Shown here: in pieces, positions 7,316 through 16,392 of the stretch
How positions within the stretch are numbered: the stretch's first letter is position 1
How the letters are laid out: each line of letters begins with the position of its first letter
NCBI RefSeq assembly: GCF_000011325.1
Contig: NC_003450.3
Location: 90,001-122,000, forward strand
Source of the DNA: Corynebacterium glutamicum ATCC 13032
Lineage (GTDB): Bacteria; Actinomycetota; Actinomycetes; Mycobacteriales; Mycobacteriaceae
Length of the DNA stretch: 32,000 nucleotides
Direction: 5' to 3'
The notes under the pieces: model-generated
Databases searched by the model: none
Seen by the model: only the letters and a program-made list of their open reading frames with translations
What the model was told of the DNA's origin: nothing
Translations under genes and position numbers: made by a program

Positions 7316-8470
7316 CTAAACCACATACCCGCGCTTGATTTGTACGCCGCGGATTACTGCGGAGCCAAGGGCGAGCGCCGCCAGCGCGTACAGCGGAATG
7401 GAGGCGCCAAGGTGCGGGAGGAGGGCGTCGAGAAGCACTGGCAGCCCGAATCCCAAATACGTGAACACATAATAGATGCCGATGCCGGTGCCACGTCGGT
7501 TGAGTGGCGTGTAAGTTTCGATGCTGAGGAGGCCTTCGCGCAGGCAGAGGCCATATGCGGTGCCGAACAGGATCGAGGCGATAACGAAAAGCCACACTGG
7601 AATGGAGTCGCCACCAAAAGCTGCCAGCGCAAAACCCGCGAGGGCACACAGCGCGCCCACGATTCCGGAGCCACGACCCCACGCGAATTTCCTACCTAAA
7701 AATTGTGCGATCAGGCCTGCGCTGAAGGCGATCGCCGCGCCGATTCCGGGGAGAAGAATGGCGTTGCCGAAGGTGGAGTCGATGCGCGCGGACATCACGA
7801 TCAGGGAGGTGGTGATGCAGCTGAACACCCAAATTGCCATCGGCAAGGACACCGCGAGGGCCTTTTTCATGCTTCGTTCGTGTTTGATTCCGCTGGATGC
7901 GCCAAGTGCGCTCGGGGTGCTGCGGGCATCGCCAAGCGCAAATCCCACAACCACCGCGATCAGCGAGAGGGCAACGCTTATGGCAAAGGGCGTAATAATG
8001 CTTGTCGACGCCATCCCCAACCCACTTGTCACAATCGGCCCCATCATGAAACCGGCGGTCAGAATAATGCCGGCCAATGTCACGCCGCTTGCTCCGCGCA
8101 ATCTGCCCGCCCATGCGGTGCCCGCGCTGACGACTAATCCAACGCCCAGACCAACGATGAATCGTCCTACCAGGAGGGAAGGACCATCATGAAACGCTAA
8201 AAGAGAAAGGTTTCCAAGCGCAGAAAGTACACCTCCGGTGAGTACCACCATGCGGGCACCAAAACGGTCGGCAAGCACACCGCCTGCGAGCAAACTTGGA
8301 AGAAGTCCCAGTGCATAAATACCAAAAGCGCCGTTGACCAGCACGCTTGATACGTCTAATTGTTCACGGATCAACACCAACACTGACGCGAAATGATTGG
8401 CTGCCCATCCTGCAGTAAACAGCAGGATGGTAACACCTATGAAGACGCGATTGGCGTTTCCTGATCTCAT
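7316..8470 (-). CDS. MFS-type transporter
   Basis: 384 aa, hydrophobic throughout (roughly 11-12 TM-length stretches). MFS motif-A-like GGVLADRFGARMV follows the second TM. Confidence 0.85.
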   Translation of the reverse strand: MRSGNANRVFIGVTILLFTAGWAANHFASVLVLIREQLDVSSVLVNGAFGIYALGLLPSLLAGGVLADRFGARMVVLTGGVLSALGNLSLLAFHDGPSLLVGRFIVGLGVGLVVSAGTAWAGRLRGASGVTLAGIILTAGFMMGPIVTSGLGMASTSIITPFAISVALSLIAVVVGFALGDARSTPSALGASSGIKHERSMKKALAVSLPMAIWVFSCITTSLIVMSARIDSTFGNAILLPGIGAAIAFSAGLIAQFLGRKFAWGRGSGIVGALCALAGFALAAFGGDSIPVWLFVIASILFGTAYGLCLREGLLSIETYTPLNRRGTGIGIYYVFTYLGFGLPVLLDALLPHLGASIPLYALAALALGSAVIRGVQIKRGYVV

Positions 8471-8502
8471 GGGTGCTCACTTTAATTCATAAGCAGCATG
8501 TT

Positions 8503-8528
8503 TTCTTGGGATTTCTTGGGTTCTTGGG
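8503..8528. repeat. Three tandem copies of TTCTTGGG (CCCAAGAA on the MFS-coding strand) 33-58 nt upstream of the MFS start
   Basis: Copies at 8503-8510, 8513-8520 and 8521-8528, read directly from the sequence. Confidence 0.7.
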
Positions 8529-8546
8529 CGGTCTGTTTCCCTCAAC

Positions 8547-8672
8547 CAAACCAGGTGACCAAAGGAGTGTATGTCGAGGTTCCCTTGGTCATATGGGCTG
8601 GTTCTGAAGTCTGATAACCGTCCCATATGACCAGTGGCGGGCTAGCCGATGCGTTTTCGGTCACCTGGTTTG
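8547..8672. repeat. 126-bp nested inverted-repeat element (14-bp perfect outer arms, 12-bp perfect inner arms)
   Basis: Outer arms: CAAACCAGGTGACC (8547-8560) / GGTCACCTGGTTTG (8659-8672). Inner arms: TGGTCATATGGG (8586-8597) / CCCATATGACCA (8622-8633). An alternative pairing is GACCAAAGGA (8557-8566) with TCCCTTGGTC (8581-8590). Confidence 0.7.
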
Positions 8673-8804
8673 CTCGGCCCTCAAAGAGGAGAAAAACTGC
8701 CCCTCGGTCTAAAGAAAGTGCCCTTCCAGAATCGCTCTCAAGCGCCTAAAGCAGATCTGCCTAGACCGACACCCATTCTGAAACTTCGACTCTTTAAACG
8801 GCCG

Positions 8805-11582
8805 TTACTCCAGAAGCTGCTGCTTTTCCTGCGCCTGCTGCTCCCAGTACTGCGACTTCGCGGAATCGCCGAAATCTTCATAGATGGAAGACAGTGCATT
8901 TGCGTAGTACAGTGCCTGCTCAGTGGGGATGCCTTCAACCCTGAATGCAGATTCCAGCAGGCTTGCGCCGTCAGTTTCGTGGCCCAATTGGAACAAGTAC
9001 TGTGCACACTGCTCCAACTGGGCAGCTGCATTGGAAGGGTCATCGTTTTGCATGGCCAGGGCAGAAGCGTCGGCTGCTCCGCTGATGCAATCTTCAGGGC
9101 GGGCAAAAGTGAAGTATGCGCGGTTGAGGGATTCCTGCACGTATAGCTTCTGAGCTGTGGTTTCTGCGAGTCCCATTGCGGTGCCCAGGGTTTCCAGCGC
9201 TTCGGTGGAACCGAGGTCTGCCTGGACGATGGCGATGCTGTCCAGCAGTTTCAGTTCAGCTTGGTGTTGATCATCAAGCATTTGAGCATAGGGGAGAGAG
9301 TGGTTGAGCTCCTCCAGCAGTTGCTCGTGCATGTTTTGGGTGTAGAGGACATCCGTGATCATGGTCATCGCTTGGACTGCGAGTTCGAAGTTGCCGAACC
9401 CTGCGGCGTTTTCGCGAGCGTGGCGCAAAATTGCTGCGGCAGCCTGGGGGTCGTGGATAGCAACGGTAGCACCCAAAGGAAGGAGTGCTTCAGTTTCAAG
9501 TTCATCAAGTGTCAGATTCTGCTCGAATTTAGGCAGCAGCAGCTTTTCCAGGATTTCGCGGGCTTCAATTGGTTCAACCTGGGCGAGTTGCATGCCCAAT
9601 CGCAGTTCTTCCTCACGGTGGGGAAGTCCTGCCGCTTGAAGTTCCTCGAAAGCGAGTCGTGCCATTTCAATGGAGCGTTCCTGCCTGCCCACAAATGAGT
9701 AAAGCTGCGCGAACTGGCTGGCGGTGCGGGCAGTGGTTTCACGCATGCCGGCGCCGATCATGTACCCGATAGTTTCATCTAGGATGGCTTCGCCGTTTCC
9801 GGTGTCTTGAACAACGGCATGTTGGCCGAAAATGCTGTCCAAGGCGAGTTCTTGAACAAAGTTTCCCTGTGTACGAAGCTCCTGGTAGCGGGCTACGTCG
9901 AGGTTCTCCGGGCTTTGAGCAAGCAAGATGGTGAACTCGGAGAACTGGGCCTCGAGGTTTTCGAATCTCAGCTCAGGATGGGAAGCGGTTTCCTCGATGA
10001 TCTTGCGGGCGATTGCAAGTGGCTCGTCGTTTTCCTCGCCGTATGGAACAAGATCGATGTTGTCCAATGCCATTTGATTGATGACTGCCCAAGACCTCAA
10101 GTCATCGCGAATCAGTTCCGCTTCGGTGAGGTAAGTCTGGACATCGGGGTTATTCAGCTGGTCAACAGTCTGGGATTCCAAGAAATCGACAGCGCGGTAG
10201 CCCTGGCGGCGAAGCTCCGAAAGGAAAAGTTCGCGTCCTTCTGCTTCTTTTCCAGGCTGATCAAGCAAGGTGATGGCATAAGCCAGACGCTCATAATCAG
10301 AAAGCTCCGCGAGCTCGTCGGCGTTGAGCAGGAATCGCTGCGCATCGGAAAATGCCCTCTTACCATTGGCGATGCAGAAACGGTACAGTTTGTCCTGAGC
10401 ATTCGCAGGCTCAGATGGGGTCGCGGTTTGCGCCTTGAGCAGCAAATTGGAGCCGCCCAATCCCACTGGAATATCCAGGGTGGAATTAGCAATTGAGGCC
10501 TCGAAACGCTTCATGAAATTGTCGTTGCCATTGCGGGCGTCATACTCGCGCGCCAGGTTGCGCGCCAATTCCAGGCAGCGTTCTTTAAGCTTTTCGACGT
10601 TCAGATCCTCATCGTGGCCAAACACCTCTCCAGTACCGGAGACAACAAGATCCCCGAAACCTGCGCGTTCAGTGGAGGACAGCAACGTGTAGGCGCCCAA
10701 GTAAAACTGGAAATGTCCCAGAGTTGCCAAAGGATCCGTGATCAAGCGGTGCTGGTAACGGGTGAGAAAGCCCAAGCCCCTGGAATGGTTTCCAGTGATG
10801 CCGAGGAATTCTAGGTGGCGTCCAACGGAATCAAGGGACTGGAATTCTGGGTTTGCCTTCGCACTGACATCTTGCAGGTAGCGGGCATAATCAGCATCGC
10901 CGGACTTAAGCACACGCAGCATGAACGCAGCGAGGGTGGTCTCTGGTTCCATGACGCAGCCGATGGATCCGTAGCTGATGATTTGGGAGACGAGGTTTTG
11001 GGTTTCGTCGTAATCATCTGCTGCCATTGCGAGTGCCGCTTTTCCTGCAATTTGGCAGGTTGGGCAGTCGTCGAAGGGATCGTCGTGCTGGGAGGCGTCG
11101 ATAAGCTCTTGCAGCTCTAGCGCACGCTCGAGGGAGCCGTTCATCAGGGCGTCGTCGCGGCGCTCAATATTAATCGCGATGCGCGGGATACCCGCGCGCG
11201 TGAAGTGTTCATCCATCTGATCGAGCATGTTGTCCATCTGCTCACGGGTGAACAACACTGAGCTAATGACCAGGTTGAGGGCGTTTTTGTACAGCCAAAA
11301 AAGATCCGGGTAGGAACCGTCGCCCTGGCCTGGGAAGCGAGCCGGATCGCGGTCATGCATGCCGACAGCTGCGGAAAAGTGGGTGAGCATTGAGGTGTGA
11401 TCCTCGTTGATATTGCCCAGCGTGGCCAGAAACAGTCGAGCTTTAAACTCAGTATCTTGATCTTCGGTTTCCTGTGCCACGCTCAATGCAAGTTGAAAAG
11501 CTTCCATCTGCTCATCGTTCATGGGCATATCAATTGCACGATCTAGCAGCGCAGTCGCCGACTGCTCAAAGGCATAATCCAT
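8805..11582 (-). CDS. Large (925 aa) acidic, all-alpha helical-repeat (TPR-like) protein of unknown function, downstream partner of the Hsp90-like ATPase
   Basis: Long uninterrupted ORF whose start lies 26 nt after the upstream gene's stop. Composition is rich in L/A/E/Q/D, with recurring ~34-40 aa amphipathic helix-pair patterns. No Walker, nuclease, kinase or protease motif was seen. There is a single CPTC pair at aa 173-176. Confidence 0.75.
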   Translation of the reverse strand: MDYAFEQSATALLDRAIDMPMNDEQMEAFQLALSVAQETEDQDTEFKARLFLATLGNINEDHTSMLTHFSAAVGMHDRDPARFPGQGDGSYPDLFWLYKNALNLVISSVLFTREQMDNMLDQMDEHFTRAGIPRIAINIERRDDALMNGSLERALELQELIDASQHDDPFDDCPTCQIAGKAALAMAADDYDETQNLVSQIISYGSIGCVMEPETTLAAFMLRVLKSGDADYARYLQDVSAKANPEFQSLDSVGRHLEFLGITGNHSRGLGFLTRYQHRLITDPLATLGHFQFYLGAYTLLSSTERAGFGDLVVSGTGEVFGHDEDLNVEKLKERCLELARNLAREYDARNGNDNFMKRFEASIANSTLDIPVGLGGSNLLLKAQTATPSEPANAQDKLYRFCIANGKRAFSDAQRFLLNADELAELSDYERLAYAITLLDQPGKEAEGRELFLSELRRQGYRAVDFLESQTVDQLNNPDVQTYLTEAELIRDDLRSWAVINQMALDNIDLVPYGEENDEPLAIARKIIEETASHPELRFENLEAQFSEFTILLAQSPENLDVARYQELRTQGNFVQELALDSIFGQHAVVQDTGNGEAILDETIGYMIGAGMRETTARTASQFAQLYSFVGRQERSIEMARLAFEELQAAGLPHREEELRLGMQLAQVEPIEAREILEKLLLPKFEQNLTLDELETEALLPLGATVAIHDPQAAAAILRHARENAAGFGNFELAVQAMTMITDVLYTQNMHEQLLEELNHSLPYAQMLDDQHQAELKLLDSIAIVQADLGSTEALETLGTAMGLAETTAQKLYVQESLNRAYFTFARPEDCISGAADASALAMQNDDPSNAAAQLEQCAQYLFQLGHETDGASLLESAFRVEGIPTEQALYYANALSSIYEDFGDSAKSQYWEQQAQEKQQLLE

Positions 11583-11608
11583 GCCCTCGAGATTAGCGGA
11601 GGATTGTC

Positions 11609-13435
11609 TTAGATATCGGATGACAAAGACAAAGAAACCAGATCTGCCAGCGAATCATTAAGCAGCGCGCGTTCCTTCACCCGCAGTGGCCTCTTGCTGG
11701 ACAACAATGCCTGAACGTAGAGCAAACGCACCGTGCGCGACACCACGGCGGTGTCATCAGTGGACGCCAATTTCCTGACCAGCGAATTGTTCCAATTCAA
11801 GCACAACGCCGACAGTCCCTGATCCTGTGGAATGTTGGCTGTTTGACGGCTCAACGTGTTATCCACCGTTGCCAAAATGTCAGCCCAACGATCAGTGGTT
11901 GCGCTTTGTGTTTCATTGCGATCCCGTGAGGCCTGCGCCTTGGAATCAATGATCACCACGGCAGGAACATCTGCGGGTTCAAAAACCCTCGTTGCGCCCT
12001 TGATCTGAAAATCCTTCAATGATTCCGTGACCTGCGCATCCAGTGCCTTGGCTTTCTCAATGTCCTGCAGCGGCGGAAGCTCCATCAGATCCATGGATTC
12101 GCGCAGGTCAGCAGTAGATACCGTAAGCGGTGGGTAGTGAACGGGAATGAGCCGAGCCAGATCGCTGTCGTGAATGTAGCCGCCATTAATAATCAAGGTG
12201 TCCGGGCGCGCAATGGTGTTGAGCTGCCTGAAATCATCCAACGTGGTAGCCAGCTGCAGCGACACATCCTCGGTGATGGACAACGTGGTGATCTCACCGA
12301 TCGAGATGCGACCACGGGAGGTCTCCAAGGTGAGAAGACCCAACATGGTTTCAGCCAGGTCCGCGTCCGATTGGCACAGCTCGCGCAGGGCAAGATCATG
12401 AATCGCAGTAAATTCCCGCACGCGGTGAGGCTTGGTCATGGCGAGATTAATCAGCCACGATTTAATGCACTCACCGATATGTTCCCTGGTTGCCGCGAAC
12501 GCGGTGTCATCCATGAGCGCTTCACGCGATGCGGTGGGTTCCAAATCGGTTGAATTGATTTCACATTCCACAAAGAACGCCCAGTTGGGCAGCACCGTGG
12601 AAGGCCCATCAGAGACCAACATGCGGTTGACATAAATACTGTGACGCCTGGACATATGCGGAGCCTGGGCCTCCGGCAATACATAAGCCACACCCTCGAT
12701 GCCAGGACCGGTGAGATCGATGACATCAAAAGGAGTTTTACCAAGGCGCTCCCGGCCGGCATACAGCCTGTGCTGCTGATCAGTATCCTTTGCAAACACC
12801 GGCGATGTAGTGATGGTGGTGTTTTTCTCACCCTGCACCACAATAGGAATCGGCAGGTAGCGGCCATAATTACTAGCAATGGTGACCACGGAATTTTCCG
12901 TCAGCAACGTGCGCTCATCAGGGCGCGGAGTCAGGTGCACAGTCGTGCCCACCGGAATGACATCCGTTGCGTCATCCCCAAGAATCTCCAGGTTAAAGGT
13001 GCCATCCGCATGACCAGTCCACCGAATCGCCGACGCACCCTCCGCATGCGACACCATGGTGATCTCATCCGCCACCATGAAACAACTAAGCAGCCCGATG
13101 CCAAATTGCCCCAGGCGACCTTCCCGCTGCAGACCGAATTCATCGCGTTTCGACGTCCGCCCCACCGTCGCCAGCAATTCCCGCGCCTCCTGCGCGGTCA
13201 GGCCCGTACCATTATCAACCAGTGAAAACGTGGCACGATCCTTGGTCACCGGCCGAATACGAATACTCGGCTCGTAGCCCTCCTCACCCTGTTCAGAACG
13301 TGCAGTACAAGCATCAACCGCATTCTGCAGCAACTCACGCACATACACCCTCGGACCGGAATAAATGTGGCGACTCAAAAGATCAACAACGCCGCCGAGG
13401 TCAACTTGGAAATTATCACGTGAGGATTCTTGCAT
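11609..13435 (-). CDS. htpG: Divergent Hsp90/HtpG-family GHKL ATPase (molecular chaperone HtpG-like)
   Basis: N-box YVRELLQNAVDA, G1 DNGTGL and G2 GQFGIGLLS. The middle-domain segment YVNRMLVSDGPSTVLPNWAFFVECEINSTDLEPTASREAL is collinear with E. coli HtpG [40 protein letters not shown], including the catalytic Arg. I prefer the ATG at 13435; an upstream GTG at 13465 is also possible. Confidence 0.85.
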   Translation of the reverse strand: MQESSRDNFQVDLGGVVDLLSRHIYSGPRVYVRELLQNAVDACTARSEQGEEGYEPSIRIRPVTKDRATFSLVDNGTGLTAQEARELLATVGRTSKRDEFGLQREGRLGQFGIGLLSCFMVADEITMVSHAEGASAIRWTGHADGTFNLEILGDDATDVIPVGTTVHLTPRPDERTLLTENSVVTIASNYGRYLPIPIVVQGEKNTTITTSPVFAKDTDQQHRLYAGRERLGKTPFDVIDLTGPGIEGVAYVLPEAQAPHMSRRHSIYVNRMLVSDGPSTVLPNWAFFVECEINSTDLEPTASREALMDDTAFAATREHIGECIKSWLINLAMTKPHRVREFTAIHDLALRELCQSDADLAETMLGLLTLETSRGRISIGEITTLSITEDVSLQLATTLDDFRQLNTIARPDTLIINGGYIHDSDLARLIPVHYPPLTVSTADLRESMDLMELPPLQDIEKAKALDAQVTESLKDFQIKGATRVFEPADVPAVVIIDSKAQASRDRNETQSATTDRWADILATVDNTLSRQTANIPQDQGLSALCLNWNNSLVRKLASTDDTAVVSRTVRLLYVQALLSSKRPLRVKERALLNDSLADLVSLSLSSDI

Positions 13436-13502
13436 ACGCCTATAAAAGCACAGTTTTGAATCCACAGGGCATCAGGGCGTGCAGAAAGATAGTGTGGTGC
13501 GC

Positions 13503-14912
13503 ATGGAAGCAACAACGATCGATGACGCAATCGCGAAGCTCATTGACATCTACGACACCTCGACCAAACTGGCCAAAGAAACCCTCAACAATGAGGACTA
13601 CGCCGCATACGCCGATGTTGTTTACCCCAAACTCACCGTTGACGTGCTGGAATGGAAACCCATCGACCGCACCGAACCCTTCGGCTATGTGGATCGAGCC
13701 GGGCGATACTCCGCCACCTTGTCCAAACCACGCGTGATTGAGCGTTACCTCCGCGAACAACTCGAGCGTCTCACCAGTAATTATCCCTGCAAGATTTACG
13801 TATCTGAGTCAGATATCCGCATCCCACCGGAGTACATTCGCGGCGCACCTTCCGCTACCGAAGCTCGCCGTGCTGGTGATGTTGCAGATATCATCCCACG
13901 CCCCACCCTGGATGAAGTCCACGACGCAATTATCGACGGCGACTGGCACGCCTTCAACGGCCCCGAACTCCCGCTTTTCCACTTCGGGCCGCAACGCTTC
14001 GACATCGCCTGCGCCCGCATCGAGCACTACACCGGCATCAACGTGGAACACGTGCAGAAGTACATTCTGTTCACCAACTACGCCATGCACACCACCGAGT
14101 TCGTGCATTTTGCCATGTCCGAACTCACCTCGGAAGACTCCCGCTACGTGGGTCTATCCTTGCCAAACGGGCAGGTAATTGACCGAGAGACCGCCACCAG
14201 CCTCGGTACGGAAACCCTTGATCTGACTAGCCGTTTCCAAATGCCTCGTTACGATCTCATCACCGAAGCCGGTGACGGTATTACCATTATCAACATCGGT
14301 GTGGGCCCATCCAATGCAAAAACTATCACCGACTGCCTTGCTGTGCTCCGCCCAGAAGCCTGGGTGATGATCGGCCACTGTGCTGGCATGGACGCCCGCA
14401 TGCGCATCGGCGACCTCATCCTTGGCAACGCCTACCAGCGCGAAGACCACATTCTGAATACCCGCATCCCACTTGGTAATCCGATCCCGGCAATACCAGA
14501 AATCCAAAAAGCTCTAGAAGCCAGCGTCGACGAAATCTACGGATCCGACAACAGCCTCATGCGCACCGGTACGGTCTTATCCACCGACGACCGAAACTGG
14601 GAATGGCACACCCCAGAAAACCTCTGGAACTGGCTCAAAGGATCCACCGCCGCAGCTGTTGACATGGAATCTTCCACCTTGGCCACCAACGGATATCGAT
14701 ACCGCATTCCATACGGCACCCTGCTGAGCGTCTCTGACCTGCCACTACACGCAGTGCCGAAACTTCCCGCGCAAGCGCAGGCGTTTTACTCCAACTCCAA
14801 GGAAGCCCACGTCATGTGTGCTGTTCGTGCAATGGAATACCTGGCAGTAGATCCTGAACGGTTGCGTACCCGTAAACTGCGCAGGACCTTGGGTGAGGTG
14901 CCGTTTCGCTAA
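13503..14912 (+). CDS. amn: AMP nucleosidase
   Basis: Collinear with recalled E. coli Amn: ITIINIGVGPSNAKTITDCLAVLRPEAWVMIGHCAGM, TGTVLSTDDRNWE, AVDMES, YGTLLSVSDLPLH, and C-terminal RKLRRTLGEVPFR. An alternative GTG start lies at 13479. Confidence 0.93.
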   Translation: MEATTIDDAIAKLIDIYDTSTKLAKETLNNEDYAAYADVVYPKLTVDVLEWKPIDRTEPFGYVDRAGRYSATLSKPRVIERYLREQLERLTSNYPCKIYVSESDIRIPPEYIRGAPSATEARRAGDVADIIPRPTLDEVHDAIIDGDWHAFNGPELPLFHFGPQRFDIACARIEHYTGINVEHVQKYILFTNYAMHTTEFVHFAMSELTSEDSRYVGLSLPNGQVIDRETATSLGTETLDLTSRFQMPRYDLITEAGDGITIINIGVGPSNAKTITDCLAVLRPEAWVMIGHCAGMDARMRIGDLILGNAYQREDHILNTRIPLGNPIPAIPEIQKALEASVDEIYGSDNSLMRTGTVLSTDDRNWEWHTPENLWNWLKGSTAAAVDMESSTLATNGYRYRIPYGTLLSVSDLPLHAVPKLPAQAQAFYSNSKEAHVMCAVRAMEYLAVDPERLRTRKLRRTLGEVPFR

Positions 14913-15047: not shown

Positions 15048-16392
15048 TTAACAATGATGGGTGCACTCGGTGCGAAGGAAGGTGTCGGCGTCGGTAAGCG
15101 CCATCATGTCGCCTCCGTTGCCGGTGACAAGCACGGTGAGGCACTCTTGCCCAGCAGCTGTGGCGACACCTACGGCGGTGGGGAAGCCGAGGCCGATGGA
15201 TTGAAGGCGGTTCCCAAAAGCACGATGCTGTCTCGTGATTCCAGGTCGAAGTAGGTGTTGGCCCCTCCGATGAAGTGTCCGCCATCGGAGGCGACGAACT
15301 TGTTAGCTGGCAAAATACCGTTAAGTTGGCGCATGAGGCTGTGTGGATCGAGTCGGCCGTCGGCTGCAAGGGCGTCGCCGCCAGGGCATGTCAGAGGATT
15401 ATCGTCCAGGTATAGCCGGCGCGGTGCGTGGAAATTTTGTGTACGAAGCTTTAAAAGCACTGCGGCTACAACAGTTGTGTTATCTGCGCTAATGAAATGG
15501 TTAATGCGCGGGTTGGTGGTCTGTGTTTCAAGATCCACTTGGAGCACTTCCGCGAGTTCACCGAAAGCCTCCCCGAATGCCATGGTGAATTGGTTCAAAC
15601 CGGCGCCCAGCACAAGCGCCACGTTGGCTCGGCGTATTTCTGAAGCTGCACCGGTCGCAGCGAAACCTCCACATACGACCAGGTCGCGAGAGTTTCCTGA
15701 GGGATGGAAGAATCCTCGGGCGGGCGCGCTGGTGGCTACATCAGCTGCCAAAAGATCTGCTAATTCCAGGATGCTTTGCTGTGCTTCGCGTGTGCCACGA
15801 CCTGCAAGAGGGAGGGGATTTTGGGCATTGCGTAGAGCTAGGACAAGGTCGGTGACATCGGGAGTTTCTGAAATCCGGGGCGCAGCAGGTATGTAGTCAC
15901 TGTTGGATCGGTGGCTGTGGCAGCTGCTAGGTCATAGGGGATTTCCAGGATCACGTGTGTGTTTTCCGGCGTATTATTCCAAGCCTGAAGAGTTACCGCA
16001 GCAACGTCATCTGCATGCACGGTGAAGGTTTCCACACCTACGGCACGTGCGAGTCCTTGCCGGTCAATGTCGAAACAGCGAGGCCCGGCGCTCGGGGCAG
16101 TGCCCACAACTAAAAGAAGTGGGATACGGGAGAGGGCGACGTCGGCAAGCGTGGTCATGGTGTTGGTGAAACCAGCACCATAGGTGGTGGTAGCGACCGC
16201 CGGGCGGCGGGTGACGCGGTGGTAGGTGTCCGCGGCGGCCACGGTTTCAACTGTGGGGCGGACGGTGATGATGCCTCGCCCGAGGCGTTCTAGGGCATCG
16301 ACGAACCAGGCGTTTCCGTTGCCCATCAGGTCGAAAACGTGATCGGTGCGGGGCATAAGAGTTCGGGCGATAGTTTCTGAAATTGAGTACAC
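15048..16392 (-). pseudogene. Thiamine-diphosphate-dependent enzyme (acetolactate synthase / pyruvate oxidase-like) disrupted by at least two frameshifts and C-terminally shortened
   Basis: The N-terminal TPP_N-like ORF (16392..15838) continues in another frame as the central domain (DLVLALRNAQNPLPLAGRGTRE...VVCGG...). The TPP-binding motif QSIGLGFPTAVGVATAAGQECLTVLVTGNGGDMMAL appears in a third frame after an apparent 1-nt loss near 15203. Confidence 0.75.

Follow-up and report, generated by a model that had tools for sequence, protein, structure and literature searches.

A two-gene unit of Corynebacterium glutamicum

The genes considered here form an adjacent pair on the chromosome of Corynebacterium glutamicum ATCC 13032, one coding for an adenosine triphosphatase (ATPase) of the Hsp90 family, the other for a long acidic protein that we name its partner. 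They lie in a window of 32,000 nucleotides (NC_003450.3, positions 90,001-122,000), this being the whole stretch of DNA that was analysed; coordinates below are positions in that window. According to open reading frame (ORF) calling both genes are on the minus strand, with the ATPase gene upstream and the gene of the 925-amino-acid (aa) partner downstream (Table 1). The ATPase ORF taken from an in-frame GTG at 13465 (11609..13465) codes for 618 aa, and NCBI uses the 608-aa form for the C. glutamicum 'HSP90 family protein' P0018, which is 99% identical to the ATPase of the window. A first-pass annotation, made from the sequence, had described two ORFs of the same strand, 26 nucleotides apart and with no terminator between them. 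This arrangement (ORFs 11609..13465 and 8805..11582) is confirmed, and the terminator scan found no terminator-like site within the 26-nucleotide gap. Over the whole region, terminator-like matches stay at the level of chance (8 against 5.5 +/- 2.1 expected).

Table 1. Features of the gene pair in the window (residue numbers are those of the respective protein)
Feature	Position	Strand	Basis or remark
Hsp90-family paralogue, coding sequence, 608 aa from ATG at 13435	11609..13435	-	ORF, NCBIfam NF010683/PRK14083
N-terminal ATPase motif RELLQNAVDA, residues 33-42 (catalytic Glu34, Mg-binding Asn38, Asp41)	13310..13339	-	translation
Adenine-binding motif DNGTGL, residues 74-79 (Asp74)	13199..13216	-	translation, alignment to HtpG motif
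Glycine-rich ATP-lid hinge motif GQFGIGL, residues 109-115	13091..13111	-	translation, alignment to HtpG motif
Middle-domain catalytic loop TASRE, residues 301-305 (Arg304)	12521..12535	-	aligns with HtpG NVSRE
Intergenic junction, 26 nucleotides, GACAATCCTCCGCTAATCTCGAGGGC	11583..11608	-	GAGGG run resembling a Shine-Dalgarno/ribosome-binding site
Partner, coding sequence, 925 aa, isoelectric point (pI) 4.41	8805..11582	-	conserved N-domain and divergent C-terminal tetratricopeptide repeat (TPR) array
Conserved partner N-domain, residues ~10-390 (~380 aa)	10413..11555	-	TPR-like alpha-solenoid, ~18 helices
W96-L-Y-K99 motif	11286..11297	-	K99 100%, W96 97% in 257 homologues
C173-P-T-C176, invariant CxxC, N-terminus of helix 174-187 in the model	11055..11066	-	257 homologues
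C209-V-M-E-P213, invariant third Cys and Pro, loop before helix 214-226 in the model	10944..10958	-	
D348-A-R350-N351 of the FDxRN(G) motif	10530..10541	-	96%, 99%, 94% conserved
Variable C-terminal helical-repeat (TPR-derived) region, residues 396-925	8808..10397	-	long actinobacterial form only

An Hsp90-family ATPase of a distinct clade

Family models place the ATPase firmly, with 733.6 bits against a cut-off of 455 for the NCBIfam model NF010683/PRK14083 ('HSP90 family protein'), the match covering residues 13-616. It does not pass the canonical HtpG model (NCBIfam NF003555/PRK05218), where it scores 161.1 bits against a cut-off of 371, nor does it reach the gathering score of the Pfam family PF00183 HSP90 (19.7 bits against 24.4). 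The hallmarks by which the protein had been recognized at first, namely the E..N N-box, DNGTGL, GQFGIGL and the SRE loop, are all present in the translation, the N-box segment RELLQNAVDA aligning with RELISNASDA of HtpG in the profile alignment. The key residues of these motifs, including E34, N38, D41, R304 and E305, are invariant in 44 ATPase homologues. Relatives outside the genus Corynebacterium are 36-47% identical to the ATPase of the window.

The profile match to HtpG and TRAP1 extends across the N-terminal and middle domains (E-value 2e-48), and a weak one links residues 536-586 to residues 560-610 of HtpG. In a search with Foldseek, the AlphaFold2 (AF2) model of the ATPase (pLDDT 84.8) aligns over ~650 columns with full-length closed chains of Hsp90, TRAP1 and HtpG, at a TM-score of 0.6-0.67 and an identity of 17-20%. 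The strong divergence from canonical HtpG reported by the first-pass annotation is thus visible in family scores and structural identity alike. The N-terminal, middle and C-terminal domains that define the architecture of the Hsp90 family are all found in the model, the last being of the dimerisation type by likeness. The full-length structural alignment indicates that the ATPase, as modelled, is a genuine three-domain Hsp90-family protein, belonging to a distinct and already named clade. This paralogue falls inside the diversity of bacterial HTPG proteins surveyed by Chen et al. (2006; PMC1525184), who took in C. glutamicum and listed two HTPG copies in S. coelicolor, of 638 and 615 aa, in different HTPG groups. 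There is a likely trap for annotators here: PRK14083 proteins, some of them named 'HtpG' in the sources, should not be equated with the HtpG of E. coli.

The partner and its conserved domain

The partner is markedly acidic, with 153 aspartate and glutamate residues against 68 lysine and arginine residues. No Pfam, NCBIfam or PADLOC model matches the 925-aa protein beyond a chance-level hit to DNA_pol3_chi (E-value 0.06). A word-indexed homology search retrieved only 17 relatives, from Corynebacterium species and from Streptacidiphilus, where they are 'tetratricopeptide repeat proteins' of ~1,000 aa with 25% identity; one of the latter overlaps by 4 nucleotides a preceding 639-aa HATPase_c_3 protein. 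When the partner of the window was set against the ORFs found downstream at 81 related loci, the similarity proved to be concentrated in residues ~10-390, hereafter the N-domain. Residues 1-395 are modelled confidently by AF2 as all-alpha (pLDDT 90.9, pTM 0.88), so that the initial description of the partner as acidic and all-helical stands, through its pI for the whole protein and through the model for these residues.

A profile search run exhaustively over 1.84 billion representatives brought together 1,840 clusters at 50% identity with E-values at or below 1e-30. The best 150 matches fall mainly into two size classes, ~360-390 aa and ~900-1,000 aa. K99, C173, C176, C209 and P213 are conserved without exception in the 257 N-domains that were aligned. 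A sequence search of the PDB with the N-domain profile gave only designed helical proteins or TPRs (E-values of at least 0.007). Foldseek against the PDB gave APC5 as the best match, followed by pentatricopeptide repeat (PPR) proteins and LGN, with E-values of 9e-5 to 3e-3 and TMq of 0.5-0.59, and against the BFVD viral library nothing specific, just generic solenoids of the TPR, PPR or SNAP-like kind. A LanC-like or other all-alpha zinc-enzyme fold was considered for the N-domain and dropped because no such structure was among the Foldseek matches. APC5 (ANAPC5) and the TPR, PPR and LGN superhelices are, like the N-domain, right-handed alpha-solenoids built of helix-turn-helix repeats. However, with an identity of 8-15% the likeness reflects the repeat fold in general; neither descent from a common ancestor nor a shared function is supported by any alignment, and the CxxC...C that is invariant in the partner is missing from these proteins. 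Family scans, PDB profile and Foldseek thus give the 925-aa protein no confident match to a characterised, unrelated family. The N-domain is an undescribed family without a Pfam-A or NCBIfam model, the members of which go under the names 'hypothetical' or 'TPR protein'.

The C-terminal half of the partner behaves differently from this conserved core. In C. glutamicum it passes no Pfam TPR model; hhalign nevertheless shows homology between residues 569-911 and the C-terminal arrays of 63 further long partners (probability 97.4%, E-value 1.2e-11), and several of the nine long partners that were scanned exceed the Pfam cut-offs of TPR_12 or TPR_2. A phmmer search with residues 396-925 returned partners of Corynebacterium and Prescottella only. 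Outside Actinomycetota, the N-domain stands alone, as proteins of ~320-390 aa without a C-terminal TPR array. As cases in point, the downstream gene in loci of Chloroflexia, Bradymonadales and Trueperaceae codes for just 365-371 aa, that is, for the N-domain only. In two loci (L029 9719-13008 and L045 9748-12401), the N-domain and the C-terminal TPR part are found in different overlapping frames, which could reflect a sequencing frameshift or a truly split partner gene.

Pairing of the two genes across bacteria

The association of the two genes was counted from either side. For the ATPase, an alignment of eight sequences was run against GTDB, with one genome per species, and the best 80 of at least 582 relatives were kept; these 80 loci, selected solely by similarity of the ATPase, together with locus L001 and the window, make a set of 82. 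After one iteration of the hidden Markov model, all 82 loci proved to have the partner N-domain directly downstream in the same orientation, including three that end at a contig edge, where the visible fragment of the partner already matches. Conservation of the neighbours, which the first-pass annotation had put forward as the check to be made, therefore extends far past close relatives. The junctions are tight: the genes overlap by 4 nucleotides in 39 loci and by 1 nucleotide in four, and 79 of the distances are within -80..+80 nucleotides. The 4-nucleotide overlaps of start and stop codons point to coupled translation. No third conserved gene was found, all-versus-all clustering of the ORFs in the 82 loci yielding only antisense shadow ORFs and synteny at the level of genera.

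For the partner, an alignment of eight N-domains was run against metagenomes, giving 79 loci, 72 of them with at least 300 nucleotides of upstream sequence. The C-terminus of the ATPase lies immediately upstream of the partner in 64 of these 72 informative loci. Three of the eight exceptions are artefacts or variants: in L099 the ORF is split and the upstream sequence too short; in L157 the ATPase is present, upstream of a partner ORF (the first copy) bearing a long N-terminal extension of ~235 aa; in L168 there is a tandem copy of the partner and the region upstream leaves the contig. The remaining five (L104, L137, L138, L144 and L160) are genuine orphans, found beside GDSL-lipase, VanZ or acyltransferase genes and having no Hsp90 paralogue in the flanks that were sequenced. 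A further orphan partner belongs to Actinomyces oris (L089 4914-7949), where it follows a YbjN-domain gene on a 415-kb replicon.

The pair is present in Actinomycetota, Bacillota, Myxococcota, Chloroflexota, Deinococcota, Planctomycetota and Bradymonadales, and recurs in at least seven bacterial phyla. Compact forms are found in Corallococcus (618 aa followed by 371 aa), in Paenibacillus (590 aa and 354 aa) and on a metagenomic contig (605 aa and 375 aa), where the pair sits between ribosomal-protein and def/fmt genes. In Listeria monocytogenes, two short partners in tandem, lmo0941 and lmo0940, come after lmo0942 (799 bits with PRK14083) and carry the motifs WxxK, DCxxC, CxExP and FDARN; lmo0941 has been given as a gene of unknown function (PMC6901971). 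The ATPases beside the Listeria, Paenibacillus, Corallococcus and metagenome partners score 666-799 bits with PRK14083. Tandem duplication of the partner, in its short or its long form, behind a single ATPase is found in several lineages (L091 6815-8783, which is lmo0941 and lmo0940; L085 5814-8167; L157 3056-7746). Of the pair imagined at first, an Hsp90 paralogue with a giant helical-repeat partner, the Hsp90 assignment stands. By contrast, what is conserved in the partner is a cysteine-bearing N-domain of ~380 aa and not a giant TPR array. That this domain is the core, that it occurs alone outside Actinomycetota and that it is occasionally duplicated in tandem had all been missed.

A proposed dedicated cofactor for a bacterial Hsp90

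Intact Hsp90 motifs, invariable co-encoding and the conservation of nothing else lead us to infer a stoichiometric two-protein machine. As read from the sequences, the operon would code for an ATP-driven Hsp90 clamp of the PRK14083 clade together with an obligate protein cofactor, either a regulator or a client adaptor; we give this reading about an even chance (roughly 0.5). The two proteins would associate in a stoichiometric complex where the N-domain docks on the Hsp90 paralogue and either regulates its ATPase and conformational cycle or delivers clients to it, a role in which the domain would correspond, in bacteria, to a co-chaperone or adaptor. In Actinomycetota, C. glutamicum included, the fast-evolving C-terminal TPR array fused to this domain may provide an added platform for binding clients or scaffolds. 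The likeliest role of the three invariant cysteines would be to bind a metal (zinc or an iron-sulfur (Fe-S) cluster) or to form a thiol redox switch gating the interaction. Docking by the eukaryotic MEEVD-TPR clamp is excluded because the C-terminal tails of the paralogue are short and unconserved. The pair may have a co-chaperone or scaffold function.

Several observations weigh against this interpretation. The ATPase of the window ends in ...LSLSSDI, without EEVD, as had been seen from the start, and an EEVD ending is found in no tail among the 82 paralogues, these tails being short and variable, so that there is no docking peptide of the MEEVD type. The orphans, which amount to ~7% of the partner-family genes plus the A. 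oris copy, retain every invariant residue, and keeping these residues without an ATPase implies that the partner has some activity of its own. No fusion of Hsp90 with the partner was seen among the best 150 partner matches or the 120 listed ATPase matches. The candidate histidine ligands for a metal or redox role of the cysteines, at positions 237 and 256, are conserved in 88% of the 257 N-domains (the window has Q/H at these places and Listeria F/L) and hence not universal. Upstream of the ATPase, neither HAIR nor CIRCE elements were found in 81 loci; with no SigR/H element either (see below), there is no sign of heat-shock regulation, and the label 'heat-shock protein' applies by homology alone. 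Finally, taken alone, a conserved operon would be just as expected if the partner were a client, a co-subunit or a regulator.

The orphans lend themselves to a different account, in which the partner is the functional core, an enzyme or sensor using its three cysteines for metal or redox chemistry, and the Hsp90 paralogue its dedicated maturase or motor; the partner would then be a client or co-subunit within a two-component machine driven by ATP, with an output other than general folding. The most conserved residues (K99, the CxxC, C209 and FDxRN) do resemble an active or metal site rather than a mere docking surface, orphan partners keep all of these signature residues without an ATPase, and it is the partner that is tandemly duplicated (in Listeria, L085 and L157), the ATPase remaining in single copy. 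Yet the domain is a plain TPR-like solenoid, the best structural matches of which are scaffolds (APC5, LGN, PPR) and none enzyme-like, Pfam and NCBIfam show no match to a cofactor-binding family, and strict one-to-one adjacency and translational coupling are just as typically seen where a chaperone is paired with its cofactor. We consider this inversion of roles rather unlikely.

Much the same organization, a GHKL ATPase switch combined with a fast-evolving TPR sensor for an invader protein, would be expected of a conflict module acting against phages or through abortive infection, as the first-pass annotation had proposed in second place. The GHKL N-domain is weakly similar to TmtA (Tiamat), to the restriction enzymes BbrUII/HgiDII and to MzaB, the C-terminal TPR array evolves fast relative to the ATPase, and flanking genes differ between taxa; in Listeria, selection signals were reported for lmo0941 (PMC6901971) and a SMI1/KNR4 gene lies downstream. 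However, the matches of the ATPase to PADLOC (TmtA, REase_II) and NCBIfam models do not exceed 33 bits, far under their cut-offs, and involve the ATP-binding fold only, while the partner has no match in PADLOC-DB v2. Family scans revealed no effector domain (nuclease, protease, TIR or pore) in either protein. Moreover, the neighbourhoods are those of housekeeping genes (urease, AMP nucleosidase, ribosomal proteins, def/fmt, Tex, RecA), no small mobile plasmid or genuine phage copies were found, and the Listeria study took lmo0941 as a core-genome locus (PMC6901971). The proposal of a defence function thus finds no support and appears quite improbable. As for two genes that merely share an operon without a joint function, nothing specific speaks in favour of it, and it is scarcely credible in view of 82 of 82 adjacencies, with gene order and strand unchanged over at least seven phyla, start and stop codons overlapping and the surroundings otherwise unrelated. 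These adjacency data effectively exclude chance co-location.

Comparison with known systems

In eukaryotes, TPR co-chaperones and adaptors of Hsp90 include Hop/Sti1, PP5, FKBP51/52, CHIP, Tah1, Sgt1, Unc45 and Tom70. The pair described here resembles these systems in combining an ATPase of the Hsp90 family with an accessory protein of TPR fold, and its long partner recalls, in a comparison drawn from general knowledge, the scaffold or adaptor co-chaperones that join Hsp90-binding and client-binding modules. By contrast, there is no sequence relationship between the partner and the eukaryotic TPR co-chaperones, the two genes are tied together in one operon and the MEEVD docking peptide is absent. 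To our knowledge, TPR co-chaperones of eukaryotes do not show the signature of three cysteines, lysine and FDxRN.

With HtpG (E. coli, PDB 2IOP) and TRAP1 the paralogue has in common the GHKL N-domain, the E/N box, DxGxG, GxxGxG, the arginine loop of the middle domain and a C-terminal helical domain of the dimerisation type; like them it has neither a charged linker nor MEEVD. Unlike HtpG, it has an NCBIfam family of its own, PRK14083, and the gene of a dedicated partner invariably comes after it. GHKL proteins involved in defence (Tiamat TmtA, those of the MORC/paraMORC type, BbrUII/HgiDII, MzaB) share its Bergerat fold over the N-terminal ~130 residues, but the remainder of the ATPase is Hsp90-like, with no effector domain or defence-island context. 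With respect to the cysteines, the zinc-thiolate switch of Hsp33, the zinc centre of DnaJ and the ZAS anti-sigma factors (RsrA) all have cysteines of the CxxC type that bind zinc and can be redox switches. By analogy, the three invariant cysteines of the partner could act like those of Hsp33, DnaJ or RsrA. However, the folds and motif spacings are unrelated and no match was found, and the partner has only three universal cysteines and no universal histidine.

No co-chaperone is known for HtpG, and Hsp90 co-chaperones are stated to be 'found only in eukaryotes', bacteria serving as the model free of them (PMC9478669). Literature searches on the genes and families of the pair brought up no paper describing the pairing. 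What is already known is the ATPase family, at the level of annotation; the partner family and the pairing appear to be new. We would tentatively go further and see in the N-domain the first dedicated family of bacterial Hsp90 cofactors, a TPR solenoid with a three-cysteine metal or redox centre controlling the basal PRK14083 clade in at least seven phyla, a claim whose chances fall somewhat short of even. If so, the design associating Hsp90 with TPR cofactors would not be a eukaryotic invention; it would be either ancient or convergent, with docking unlike that of MEEVD and TPR. Should the complex exist, it would offer a minimal two-gene system for understanding how accessory proteins steer the Hsp90 cycle, give a functional role to a family that comprises at least 1,840 clusters at 50% identity and has no Pfam or NCBIfam model, and bear on the origin of Hsp90-TPR partnerships. 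Were it also to act as proposed, the textbook statement on co-chaperones would be overturned. Tractable bacteria that have the pair include L. monocytogenes (lmo0940-0942), Streptomyces and C. glutamicum.

Regulation, mobility and chromosomal surroundings

A pattern of the SigR/H type (GGAAT-N-GTT) gave nine matches upstream of the paralogue, all of them one identical sequence in Microbacterium loci: GGAATCGAACCTGCAACCTGCGGTT, found ~220-270 nucleotides upstream of the Hsp90 paralogue in L004, L007-L011, L014, L021 and L023. As a SigR/H promoter GGAATCGAACCTGCAACCTGCGGTT was rejected, since, read by eye, it resembles the T-arm of a tRNA on the opposite strand. In the window, Rfam had no match in 8000-14500, and the consensus promoter scan gave no site at 13436-13478. 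In the same region, on the minus strand, a TATAGG hexamer resembling a -10 element ends 4 nucleotides before the ATG at 13435, and the start of the divergent AMP nucleosidase gene is ~45-70 nucleotides from that ATG. The mRNA of the Hsp90 paralogue may be leaderless, with a compact divergent promoter region common to the AMP nucleosidase gene.

Matches in the plasmid collection are restricted to very large records, of 390 kb to 2.9 Mb; among the 12 plasmid records listed, 11 are typed non-mobilizable and one mobilizable. The 'phage' matches are canonical htpG genes in records of large or jumbo phages (Lak phages, an Acinetobacter record) or short unannotated fragments, and no convincing phage copy of the pair was found in the phage records searched. 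One 6.6-kb scaffold from human faeces (L088, GenBank MT837560.1, 'UNVERIFIED: Bacteriophage sp.') carries an ATPase with a long partner; the record is probably bacterial DNA that was assigned to a phage.

The neighbours of the Listeria operon are, on one side (L091 3789-4794), fri, which codes for a Dps-like ferritin, and a gene of the HesB/YadR/YfhF family, and on the other (L091 8879-9625) a gene of the SMI1/KNR4 family. HesB-type proteins function in Fe-S assembly, and SMI1/KNR4 (SUKH) proteins are frequently toxin-immunity proteins. This arrangement is not kept in other taxa, and the iron and Fe-S neighbours, given the three invariant cysteines of the partner, may or may not be meaningful.

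In C. glutamicum, the pair has on one flank ureD, an alpha/beta hydrolase gene and a gene for an MFS transporter, and on the other the divergently transcribed AMP nucleosidase gene, a split gene for an enzyme dependent on thiamine pyrophosphate (TPP) and a gene for a PepSY protein. The content in G+C is flat over the pair (0.53-0.56), and the surroundings are an ordinary chromosomal neighbourhood. The split gene consists of two consecutive minus-strand ORFs (15838-16392 and 15170-15751), which resemble a single TPP-enzyme gene of the acetolactate-synthase type interrupted by a frameshift or stop, the Pfam match TPP_enzyme_N being found only in the first of them (15838-16392); the gene at 15170-16392 is probably a pseudogene.

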